Positions 22,128 to 24,828 of a DNA stretch of 64,000 nucleotides are shown here, piece by piece; position 1 is the stretch's first letter; every line of letters starts with the position of its first letter. The notes below the pieces were generated by a model. It saw only the letters and a program-made list of their open reading frames with translations, was not told the origin of the DNA and did not search any database. The DNA comes from an uncultured Candidatus Saccharibacteria bacterium (lineage in GTDB: Bacteria; Patescibacteriota; Minisyncoccia; Phycocordibacterales; UBA9973): positions 65,334 to 129,333 of the forward strand of contig CAZYIA010000001.1 of assembly GCA_964646765.1 (NCBI GenBank), written 5' to 3'. The position numbers were made by a program, and so were the translations under genes.

Positions 22128-24828
22128 GAATTGGCCACGGAGAAACCATTAGTAAACGACCGTTTGATTCCGGTAACGTTTCCCAGATTGCTTCAGTTAC
22201 GAACGGCATCAGAGGGTGAAGCATTGTTGTAAGTTCTTTTAAAACAGTACGGAGCAGTTTCTTGCGAGACATTTTTTCAGCATCTGTTCCTTCAGCCAAA
22301 ATTTTCTTACTCTCTTCCAAAACTTCGTCGGCAAAACGATGCCAAGCAAATTGGTAGAGTTTTTCTGATACTAAGTGGAACTTATACGTTTCGTATTCAT
22401 TGGTAATTTCCTGTTTGAGAGTATTCCACTCGGTTGCAATAGCAGCATCCGCATCGGAGTATGCGACCGCCATATCTACACCGTCAGTATAGGTAAGAAC
22501 GAAGCGGGTGATATTCCAGAGTTTGTTGCAGAAATTTTTATAGCCTTTAATTTTATCGCGTGAAATCTTGATGTCAGTTCCTGGGGCAACACCAAATATA
22601 AGCGCCATTCGTCCAGCATCCGCACCGAATTCATTCGCAATATCGAGCGGATCCATCGCAGCATTGCCGAGCGATTTAGACATTTTCTCCCCCTTTTCTG
22701 TGCGGACAATGCCCGAGAGGTAGACGGTGTGGAAGGGAATAGTTTCAAGAGCATAGCCAGTCATGAGAATCATGCGGGCGACCCAGAAGAAGAGAATGTC
22801 CGGACCACACTGAAGCATGTCTGTTGGATGATAGATTTCGAGATCTTTGGTTTTGTCTGGCCAGCCAAGCGTGGAGAAGGTCCATGAACCAGATGAGAAC
22901 CAGGTGTCGAGAGTGTCAGGATCTTGCGTAAAGTTGTCTTCTGGAGGATTGATGGTCACAGTAAATTCATAGGTGGTGGCATTGCCCATACGCCATTTAT
23001 TTCTGAAAGCGATTAAGTCCGTCTCTCCATCCAATACTGCTTTCATCACAGAGGAAAAAGATTGGTGTCCAATAACAACAATGTCTCCGTCAGATTGATC
23101 ACTATAAATCAATTCCCATGCTTGTTTAGCCCGAGCTAAGAGTTCTTCTTTCGTTTCTCCAGTACCTGTTGTGAGAGTCGCAACTAGAAGGGGAATTTCA
23201 TTTCTAGCTTTACCTTCGAGATTTCCCGCACCTACCTCCCGGAATAGAGGAGAAATTTCAAACGGGGTTCCGATAGTTTTCTCTATAATTTCAGCCGTTT
23301 CTACCGCTCTTGGCAAATCAGAAGAGAAAATTTTTCCTATTTTTCTACCTACAAGTAGTTCAGCGGCTTTACGCGCTTGCTCCTTACCTTTTTCGGTAAG
23401 AGGATAATCACCCAATCCCGCATAAATATCAGACTGGTTTGCCGTTGATTCTCCGTGTCGTACGAAAATTATGTTTCGAGATTTCTGAAGATGAGGTTTA
23501 TTTTCCGTGTCATACCAAACAGGCACACGATGGCCGTACCAGATTTGTCGTGAAATGCACCAGTCGCGAAGGTTATCAATCCAATGGAAGTATGTCTTTT
23601 CAAAATATTCGGGAATAATTCGAATTGCGCTGCTTGCTACCGATTCGCGCATAAGATCTTTCAGCGTCTTGCCGCGGCCAGGGATTTCTTTGTTTACAGC
23701 TACGAACCACTGAAGTTTTGGCAACGGCTCAACAATGCCGCCAGTTCGTTCAGCAGTAGAAACATTTTGGTTGACCTCTTCTTCTTTTTCGAGCAGTCCT
23801 TCCTCACGAAGCCAGGAAACAATAGCTTCCCGAGCCTCGGTAGTTTTCTTGCCCAGTATCCGTTCGTCACCCACAATCATTTTGGCGTACTCATTAATAA
23901 CCTGAGGGCGAGGCAAGTTGTGCCGATCCGCAATTTCCCAGTCGGTCATTGAGTGGGCCGGAGTAACGCCGAGGGCGCCGGTACCGAAGTCTTTTTCTAC
24001 CGATTCGTCGGCAATAATTTTGATATGAATAGGTACGCCGCAGAAAACCGCGTCATATTCCTTACCGACAAATTCTTGATAGCGTGAGTCTTCTGGGTGG
24101 ACAGCTACTGCAGTGTCGCCAACTTTGGTTTCTGGTCGGGTCGTGGAAATAGAAATAGGGAAGTCCTTAGAATACTTAAAAGTGTAGAGCTTCGCTTTGC
24201 GCTCTTCGTATACGATTTCGTCATCGGCAATCGTGGTTTGGCCTTTTGGATCCCAGTTTACAATGCGATTGCCACGGTAAATGAGGCCGTCATCGTACAT
24301 CCGCTTAAACATGGTGTTTACCGCGCGGTTTCGCGTTGCATCAAGGGTAAACGCTTCACGGCTCCAGTCACACGAAGCACCCATTACTCTCGTTTGGCTA
24401 GCGATAGTGCGGCGACTTTCGGAAACAAAAGCATCAATGCGACGTAGTAATTCTTCGCGGCCAAGATCATGGCGGCTTTTGCCTTCTTTTTTATAAATTT
24501 CTTTTTCAACTTTGCTTTGTGTTGCGATAGCAGCATGATCAGTTCCGGGAAGCCAAAGTGTGCGGTGGCCGCGCATTCGCTTGAAACGAATCGCGATATC
24601 TTGAATAGTAAGACCGAGAGCATGACCCATATGGAGCACTCCCGTGGCATTCGGCGGCGGCATCATGATAGTATACGGTTTAGCATCCGGCTTCGTATAG
24701 CCTGCCTCGATACATTTTTCCGGATTAAAAAAACCGCTCTTTTCCCAGATGTCGTAAATTTCTTTTTCGTGCTCGTTGGAGTTGTAGGCTTTTAGCAGCT
24801 TTTCAGGCACGTGAGCAGGATTTTCCAT
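22120..24828 (-). CDS. valS: Valyl-tRNA synthetase with an inserted histidine-phosphatase (PGAM-like) domain; C-terminal coiled-coil absent
   Basis: [15 protein letters not shown] (ValRS HIGH region), editing [30 protein letters not shown], and KMSKSLGN. About 200 extra residues (aa ~445-632) hold RHGE...[11 protein letters not shown]...VIGHQ. Confidence 0.95.
   Translation of the reverse strand: [902 protein letters not shown]

Follow-up and report, generated by a model that had tools for sequence, protein, structure and literature searches.

A histidine phosphatase domain nested in the CP3 region of a Patescibacterial valyl-tRNA synthetase and its patchy recurrence in related synthetases

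The stretch of DNA analyzed here (the window) comprises 64,000 nucleotides of contig CAZYIA010000001.1 from an uncultured Candidatus Saccharibacteria bacterium, and carries a gene for valyl-tRNA synthetase (ValRS) in which a histidine phosphatase domain is nested. The gene is a single open reading frame (ORF) of 902 amino acids (24828 to 22120, minus strand), unbroken by any stop or frameshift. The encoded protein matches tRNA-synt_1 (E 6e-122) and, at residues 794–899, Anticodon_1 in Pfam, and the NCBIfam models NF004349 (valine--tRNA ligase; 860.6 bits versus a cut-off of 704) and TIGR00422 (valS; 808.5 versus 612.1) each match in two stretches that flank the insert. The class I motifs HMGH (residues 66–69) and KMSKS (residues 715–719) are kept, as are the editing (CP1) motifs, namely TTRPET (residues 229–234) and a second motif at residues 282–292, and the DTWFSS strand motif is located at residues 641–646. 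The ValRS signature positions are largely invariant or nearly invariant in the ValRS alignment. When the full AlphaFold2 model is compared with the PDB using Foldseek, the best match is 1GAX_A, the ValRS of Thermus thermophilus (E 4e-51, 34% identity). Judging from the sequence, the gene product should be a working ValRS that charges and edits tRNA-Val as usual.

The C-terminal coiled-coil arm Val_tRNA-synt_C (PF10458) is typical of bacterial ValRS and is not defining for the enzyme. This arm is not detected by Pfam in the window ValRS, the chain of which stops right after Anticodon_1. In addition, CP3 of the window ValRS contains no cysteines and hence no zinc knuckle. The arm is likewise lacking in Paceibacteria-type ValRS relatives of 720–745 residues, which also have no CP3 cysteines.

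A histidine phosphatase domain of branch 1 is present in full in the insert. The original prediction, made from the sequence without database searches, had placed such a domain in ValRS next to the WCISRQ motif, at 22954–23478; this interval corresponds to residues 451–625 and coincides with the domain, which lies in frame immediately after the WCISRQ linker, and every motif then quoted (WCISRQ, RHGES, PRAVETA, IGHQS, and DTWFSS) is found. The profile His_Phos_1 (PF00300), proposed at that time as a check, matches residues 453–622 with an E of 6.3e-33 and 114.5 bits against a gathering threshold of 21.7, covering profile positions 1–179 of 194. The catalytic set is complete in the insert (Arg457, His458, Asn464, Arg507, Glu531, and His588). 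When 20 nested and 10 free-standing homologs are aligned, Arg457, His458, Gly459, Glu531, and His588 prove invariant and Asn464 and Arg507 nearly so. The nucleophile His is present in all 65 copies located in CP3 of ValRS, and five catalytic residues occur together in 52 of the 65; the copies with an incomplete set are mostly second copies of multi-copy proteins (see below). The phosphatase domain is apparently active. Catalysis would proceed via a phospho-His458 intermediate, with Arg457, Arg507, and His588 holding the phosphate and Glu531 serving as the putative acid/base.

Structure prediction agrees with the profile match. AlphaFold2 models the insert alone with a mean predicted local distance difference test score (pLDDT) of 95.3 and a predicted template-modeling score (pTM) of 0.89, and the whole protein with a pLDDT of 88 and a pTM of 0.78. 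A Foldseek search of the PDB with the insert returns 296 chains at E ≤ 0.001, and the best 50 of these are all histidine phosphatase enzymes with a template-modeling (TM) score of about 0.7. The 64-kb window contains no second His_Phos gene.

The closest solved folds of the insert are the small-molecule phosphatases GpgP, riboflavin-pathway phosphatase, TIGAR, PspA, CobC, and PhoE (E 1e-11 to 1e-14). The branch-1 phosphatases PhoE/YhfR (1EBB/1H2E), GpgP (4PZ9), PspA (4IJ5), CobC (6E4B), and TIGAR (3E9C) share with the insert the fold, the R-H-(N)-R-E-H set, and a compact cap. However, whereas PhoE, GpgP, PspA, CobC, and TIGAR are free-standing and have assigned substrates, the window domain is nested, is 22–27% identical to them, and reaches no subfamily cut-off. 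Among the NCBIfam phosphatase subfamily models, CobC (TIGR03162, ribazole_cobC) is the best but reaches only 78.3 versus a cut-off of 162.9, and the archaeal cofactor-dependent phosphoglycerate mutase (dPGM; NF038349, dPGM_arch) is second with 70.6 versus 225. Cofactor-dependent phosphoglycerate mutase (PGM; TIGR01258, pgm_1) scores 37.8 versus 81.7, PspA 42.6 versus 350, and the GpmB and MSMEG_4193 models are also below their cut-offs. No SixA model occurs among the best 25 of the 38 NCBIfam matches, nor does SixA occur among the PDB sequence and fold matches listed. The branch-1 assignment of the original prediction stands, but the insert cannot be placed within dPGM or CobC, the models of which score far below their cut-offs, and among the matches listed nothing points to SixA.

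These scores bear on the idea that the insert supplies a missing central-metabolic enzyme, for example PGM or phosphoserine phosphatase, within ValRS. PGM is reported to be absent from several shallow Parcubacteria clades, possibly being too divergent to detect there (PMC7304191). The small archaeal dPGM is the second-best phosphatase model and PspA-type phosphoserine phosphatases are among the closest folds, yet dPGM_arch, pgm_1, and PspA all fall far short of their cut-offs. In classical dPGM a large cap segment binds the substrate, whereas in the insert just 57 residues lie between Glu531 and His588, which in our reading leaves no large substrate-binding cap segment. Moreover, patchy presence among near-identical hosts (see below) is ill-suited to an essential glycolytic step, unless free-standing copies compensate. 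We regard this explanation as very unlikely.

The site of insertion is resolved by alignment to T. thermophilus ValRS (1GAX), as had been suggested with the original prediction. The HMMER alignment breaks at query residue 440 (Thermus residue 417) and restarts at query residue 633 (Thermus residue 446), and 192 residues of the window ValRS occupy the place of the 28-residue Thermus CP3 segment, in agreement with the ~190 extra residues predicted. The spacing from WCISRQ to DTWFSS is 218 residues in the window ValRS versus 41 in insert-less close relatives, in which this 41-residue CP3 spacer is cysteine-free. In isoleucyl-tRNA synthetase (IleRS), the segment equivalent to WCISRQ is the CP2–CP3 linker, which lines the tRNA CCA-binding pocket of the yeast enzyme (PMC7955072), and the variable piece that follows this linker is CP3, the topology and zinc binding of which vary (PMC7191050). 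Because the insertion follows the WCISRQ linker, which is homologous to the CP2–CP3 linker of IleRS, the insert represents an enlarged CP3. The proteins P0162 and P0134 retain CxxC...CxxC on both sides of the phosphatase, which therefore is placed at the tip of a former zinc knuckle. Thermus ValRS and the window ValRS have the same order of elements (Rossmann, CP1, CP2, WCISRQ linker, CP3, second Rossmann half, and anticodon-binding domain). In contrast to the Thermus enzyme, CP3 of the window ValRS is a 170-residue enzyme domain on a stalk instead of a 28-residue knuckle, and the coiled-coil arm is absent.

In the AlphaFold2 model, strands 445–447 and 449–457 lead straight into the phosphatase sheet. 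The HLPK-like N-terminal linker is conserved in many homologs, and the P-x-G...QD return segment is common to the insert-bearing window ValRS and its insert-less relatives. Because the strands at both junctions enter or leave the phosphatase sheet directly, the phosphatase appears in the predicted structure to be carried on a two-stranded CP3 stalk, with the Rossmann fold undisturbed.

The junctions (...WYD/TENK... and ...NFTQ/DPDT...) do not have the intein splice pattern Cys/Ser/Thr...His-Asn-Cys/Ser/Thr, and Pfam gives no intein or Hint match in the window ValRS, in line with the earlier statement that intein hallmarks are lacking. In the DNA, the junctions have only short repeats of chance-like size, with no flanking duplications or mobility genes, and the GC content of the insert is unremarkable (~0.42–0.44). 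An imperfect 24-nt direct repeat (20/24 matches) is present at the N-terminal junction (23444–23467 versus 23496–23519), where it comprises the codons for FVRHGEST at the start of the phosphatase and VWYDTENK at the junction itself; this repeat is probably due to chance.

The same architecture recurs in related proteins. PF00300 is found at the same site in 27 of the 120 closest ValRS, all of which belong to Patescibacteria where named. These 27 proteins (899–1001 residues) come from NCBI, JGI, ENA, and Logan assemblies, and one of them is from Candidatus Nomurabacteria GW2011_GWB1_37_5. The rest of the 120 best ValRS matches have 707–829 residues and are without the phosphatase domain. The closest database protein to the window ValRS is at most ~66% identical. 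A scan of GTDB genomes, which used window-specific peptide patterns and thus has low recall for nested copies, identified a 922-residue ValRS with the insert in a Paceibacterota metagenome-assembled genome (MAG; L009). That the nested arrangement is an artefact, caused by a misassembly, a gene-fusing frameshift, or an intein that is spliced out, has a negligible probability: the ORF is continuous and holds no frameshifted separate gene, the same in-frame architecture is present in at least 27 independent assemblies as well as in GTDB genomes, the junction residues are conserved, host and insert fold together confidently in AlphaFold2, and no intein signature is seen.

When 1.84 billion representative proteins were scanned exhaustively with HMMER, more distant His_Phos-bearing ValRS came to light, and some of these ValRS (1040–1538 residues) keep the coiled-coil arm. 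Several ValRS contain more than one copy: in P0211, CP3 holds a tandem pair; P0208 and P0209 each have one copy in CP3 and one at a site upstream of WCISRQ; and P0207 has four. The second copies in these multi-copy proteins (1043–1538 residues) are without the Glu and/or the second His. His_Phos can also be accompanied in CP3 by a GNAT domain, as in a ValRS of a Saccharibacteria-labelled genome (L023:1036-4506), and in P0273, P0326, and P0011 it is combined with another, Pfam-less domain. This Pfam-less cassette of ~130 residues (KIETRAGR...YGVWAFEL) is located at the CP3 site of ValRS in P0080, P0273, P0326, and P0011. The KIETRAGR domain was suspected to be ASCH, but there is no Pfam match. 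P0011 is a ValRS fragment that is misnamed "alpha-ribazole phosphatase" in the database.

Multi-copy and arm-bearing proteins are informative for the possibility that the insert is a regulatory or structural module, which would bind a phosphorylated metabolite or add bulk and thereby modulate ValRS allosterically or aid tRNA binding, with catalysis irrelevant. Such a role would be consistent with the short and predicted rigid connection to the rim of the active site, with a ValRS that is without the C-terminal coiled-coil tRNA-binding arm, and with the loss of the Glu or the second His in some nested copies. However, the nucleophile His is retained in 65/65 copies and the full set in 80%, even though these copies are only 22–58% identical to the window insert; the domains are acidic to neutral; and the arm-bearing long ValRS P0209, P0211, and P0273 have the insert too, for which reason the specific idea that the insert compensates for a missing coiled-coil arm was rejected. 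We judge a regulatory or structural module to be quite improbable.

The domain is also found in hosts other than ValRS (Table 1). Several IleRS from the GTDB scan have His_Phos in the CP3 zinc knuckle (TIGR00392 scores of 828–936 versus a cut-off of 621) and are encoded in MAGs of Moraniibacteriota, Gracilibacteria, Yonathbacteria, and Peribacteria. The IleRS copies often lie within a CxxC...CxC zinc knuckle, and relatives of the insert occur in pairs within type-2 IleRS. P0247, a TsaD protein (tRNA t6A transferase) of 579 residues, has His_Phos nested at residues 251–408, which is a site of its own, and P0309, a phage Mu-F-like protein of 479 residues, has a C-terminal His_Phos; the domains of P0247 and P0309 are among the closest relatives of the window insert. 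Free-standing genes of the same phosphatase subfamily (177–190 residues) also exist in Patescibacteria.

Table 1. Coordinates of valS, its nested phosphatase domain, and IleRS proteins bearing related copies. Ranges without a prefix are positions in the window.
Feature	Position	Strand	Basis
valS, complete valyl-tRNA synthetase of 902 residues with nested domain (stop codon included)	22120..24828	-	Pfam, NCBIfam
ValRS N-terminal body, residues 1–440: first Rossmann half, CP1 editing domain, CP2, WCISRQ linker	23509..24828	-	Aligns to 1GAX 17–417
WCISRQ motif, residues 423–428, CP2–CP3 linker	23545..23562	-	Invariant in ValRS alignment
N-terminal stalk/linker, residues 441–452	23473..23508	-	AlphaFold2 strands
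Nested His_Phos_1 domain, residues 453–622	22963..23472	-	Pfam, AlphaFold2, Foldseek
RHG motif: R457, nucleophile H458, G459 (RHGES, residues 457–461)	23452..23460	-	Read from sequence
R507, second phosphate-binding Arg (PRAVETA, residues 506–512)	23308..23310	-	R in 64/65 nested copies
E531, presumed general acid/base	23236..23238	-	E in 56/65 nested copies
H588, second catalytic His (IGHQS, residues 586–590)	23065..23067	-	H in 62/65 nested copies
C-terminal stalk/linker, residues 623–632, P.G..-like return strand	22933..22962	-	Alignment, AlphaFold2
ValRS C-terminal body, residues 633–902: second Rossmann half (DTWFSS, KMSKS) and anticodon-binding domain	22123..22932	-	Aligns to 1GAX 446–706
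IleRS with one or two His_Phos copies in CP3 (also P0271, P0351, P0233, P0241, P0259, P0328)	L012:1513-5091; L040:1633-5295; L079:1351-5154; L022:817-5166

Host and insert differ in their relationships. In a neighbor-joining tree of the ValRS body minus the insert, insert-bearing and insert-less proteins are interspersed. Identity to the window protein ranges from 31 to 78% for the body and from 22 to 58% for the insert, and the two are uncorrelated (Spearman rho 0.01). The four closest bodies (76–78%) hold inserts that are only 30–33% identical to the window insert, and the closest inserts (56–58%) sit in bodies that are only 61–66% identical. The domain tree splits the nested copies into three or more groups, between which IleRS copies and free-standing proteins of 170–190 residues are interleaved; the latter are encoded by genuine separate genes. 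The neighbor-joining trees carry no support values and sustain a qualitative conclusion only, not a count of gains, losses, and exchanges. A single origin followed by vertical inheritance is insufficient to explain uncorrelated body and insert identities and interspersed insert-less ValRS. Because these identities are uncorrelated, presence is patchy among equally close ValRS, several hosts are used, and other cassettes occupy the same site, host and insert have different histories and the domain behaves as an exchangeable cassette. The window ValRS is thus not an isolated case: cassettes have been inserted widely, though patchily, into class Ia synthetases of Patescibacteria.

A selfish or neutral passenger, that is, a cassette which recombination carries into loops of essential genes that tolerate it, with no benefit to the host, would also yield a patchy distribution, up to four copies per protein, several hosts, uncoupled host and insert phylogenies, and degenerate second copies. 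Such a passenger is nevertheless difficult to reconcile with the clear purifying selection on the catalytic residues and with junctions at which no repeats, inteins, endonucleases, or other mobility signatures are present. In addition, we know of no mechanism for the self-mobilization of such a domain. This explanation deserves little weight.

A second synthetase in the window has a comparable organization. Leucyl-tRNA synthetase (LeuRS; 8388–12035, plus strand; 1215 residues) contains a NUDIX domain at residues 653–774 (~10344–10709; E 7e-10) and a Ham1-like ITPase-family domain at about residues 311–448 (~9318–9731; E 3.7e-10), the latter interrupting the editing domain where it starts. NUDIX and Ham1 are both families of nucleotide hydrolases. 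Nested nucleotide/phosphate hydrolase domains are therefore held by each of the two known class Ia editing synthetases of the window, and ValRS is, as had been proposed, the second editing-type class Ia synthetase in the window with a phosphohydrolase insertion, although only one such insertion had been mentioned for the other.

We give an even chance to the interpretation that the nested domain works autonomously as a phosphomonoesterase on a small phosphorylated metabolite, and that it is expressed together with a working ValRS to which it is tethered. A short CP3 hairpin, which is a zinc knuckle in some relatives, has been replaced by a complete branch-1 histidine phosphatase, and the substrate would most probably be a small metabolite such as a nucleotide, a sugar phosphate, or a phospho-amino acid. 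A housekeeping hydrolase would in this way be tethered to an essential enzyme, and class Ia synthetases of Patescibacteria would hold it as one among several cassettes that can replace each other. This interpretation is favored because the closest folds are all small-molecule phosphatases, because the catalytic residues and charge are indistinguishable from those of free-standing relatives, and because the domain is dispensable in equally close ValRS. The median isoelectric point is 6.0 for nested copies versus 6.07 for free-standing proteins (5.3 for the window insert); nested copies do not exceed the free-standing proteins in basicity and thus give no sign of adaptation to RNA binding. We infer catalytic activity, a small-molecule substrate, and independence from aminoacylation.

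Four points weigh against an autonomous phosphatase. First, every NCBIfam phosphatase subfamily model examined is below its cut-off, so no substrate can be named. Second, the gene neighborhoods of the free-standing relatives (P0028, by xseA/xseB and a methyltransferase; P0222, by photolyase; P0224, by a weak HIT-family match) offer no consistent functional clue. Third, all hosts so far (ValRS, IleRS, and TsaD) are enzymes that work with tRNA and acyl-adenylates, a hint of a functional link rather than of random placement. Fourth, a coupled function is geometrically conceivable, because the stalk is short and, by prediction, forms a rigid beta-ribbon that is anchored where the synthetic site has its rim (AlphaFold2; PMC7955072).

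Such coupling would be realized if the insert gave the enzyme a third active site, directed at the tRNA 3′ end, which strips a 3′- or 2′-phosphate, or a CCA-end phosphate left by cleavage or pyrophosphorylation, and thereby permits the recharging of damaged or toxin-modified tRNA, or if the insert acted on an adenylate-derived nucleotide released at the synthetic site. Toxins phosphorylate or cleave the tRNA CCA end. The stalk starts right after the WCISRQ linker, the equivalent of which in IleRS lines the CCA pocket (PMC7955072), and rejoins the synthetase at the DTWFSS strand, which belongs to the amino-acid pocket. Consistent with this role are also the presence of the same domain in IleRS, at the same site, and in TsaD, a further enzyme that uses tRNA and acyl-adenylates, and the NUDIX domain of the window LeuRS, as NUDIX is a pyrophosphohydrolase family. 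However, the observations that favor an autonomous phosphatase count against action on tRNA: the closest solved folds act on small molecules, the nested domains, which are mildly acidic, do not surpass their free-standing relatives in basicity, and equally close ValRS dispense with the domain. To our knowledge, moreover, no branch-1 histidine phosphatase acts on RNA ends, which is a further argument against this role. Coupling to the tRNA 3′ end or to adenylate-derived nucleotides is the main rival of an autonomous phosphatase, but it is unlikely overall.

The CP1 editing domain of ValRS, IleRS, and LeuRS is the paradigm of a hydrolytic domain that is inserted in the Rossmann fold and reached by the flexible tRNA 3′ end. 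Whereas CP1 is universal in these enzymes, has another fold, and acts on an aminoacyl ester, the nested phosphatase belongs to the phosphoesterases and has a patchy distribution restricted to a lineage. A more general proposal, which we consider distinctly unlikely, is that Patescibacterial class Ia synthetases gained an extra catalytic site visited by the tRNA 3′ end, such that the CP3 phosphatase and the NUDIX and Ham1-like domains of LeuRS repair phosphorylated, pyrophosphorylated, or cleaved CCA ends, or destroy toxic adenylate-like nucleotides. If this were true, the synthetase would itself double as an antitoxin or as a device for tRNA repair.

Few enzymes are as conserved as aminoacyl-tRNA synthetases, whose accessory domains as a rule contribute to tRNA binding or editing. 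Foreign enzyme domains within synthetases are already known (NCBIfam ileS_w_GNAT), and the histidine phosphatase in CP3 of ValRS and IleRS is a further variant of this arrangement. A full-text literature search gave no description of a histidine phosphatase nested in ValRS, and a 2026 survey of domain insertions does not mention a phosphatase; public databases contain the architecture without remark, annotating such proteins only as valine--tRNA ligase or class I tRNA ligase family protein. NF040702 (ileS_w_GNAT) likewise describes a class Ia synthetase with an extra non-editing enzyme domain and can be compared with the ValRS of L023, which has GNAT and His_Phos in CP3. In the window protein, by contrast, the passenger differs and the host is ValRS, which scores 159.6 against the NF040702 cut-off of 1999. 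Bifunctional RNase H/acid phosphatase (NF005567, Rv2228c type) is similar in that a CobC-like His_Phos is joined to a nucleic-acid enzyme. That protein is an end-to-end fusion with another partner, whereas the window phosphatase is nested (59.9 versus a cut-off of 326). We know of no established functional coupling between the two domains of RNase H/acid phosphatase.

The remaining content of the window is ordinary bacterial housekeeping (MurJ, LepA, BipA, FtsZ, TsaD, PEPCK, and six tRNAs), in keeping with a Patescibacterial genome. The TsaD ORF (27375–28607, minus strand) has 410 residues from a TTG start and matches Pfam only from residue 128, so that either the start is over-called or extra N-terminal sequence is present; this window TsaD has no His_Phos. 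At 28576–30093 (minus strand), a 505-residue protein of the EPSP-synthase/MurA family has an N-terminal HTH_3 DNA-binding domain, which is an unusual fusion. Four ORFs of 138–431 residues have no Pfam match (24937–25374, minus strand; 25649–26065, 26065–26565, and 60200–61495, plus strand), and three of these adjoin valS.

An intact phosphatase of metabolic type thus occupies the CP3 hairpin of ValRS, where it borders the synthetic site, and it recurs across Patescibacteria. If the domains are autonomous, they would represent a way for very small genomes to pack housekeeping hydrolases into essential genes, and CP3 would be marked as a naturally permissive site for protein engineering. If coupling to the tRNA 3′ end or to adenylates applies instead, translational quality control or toxin resistance would possess an additional, new layer.

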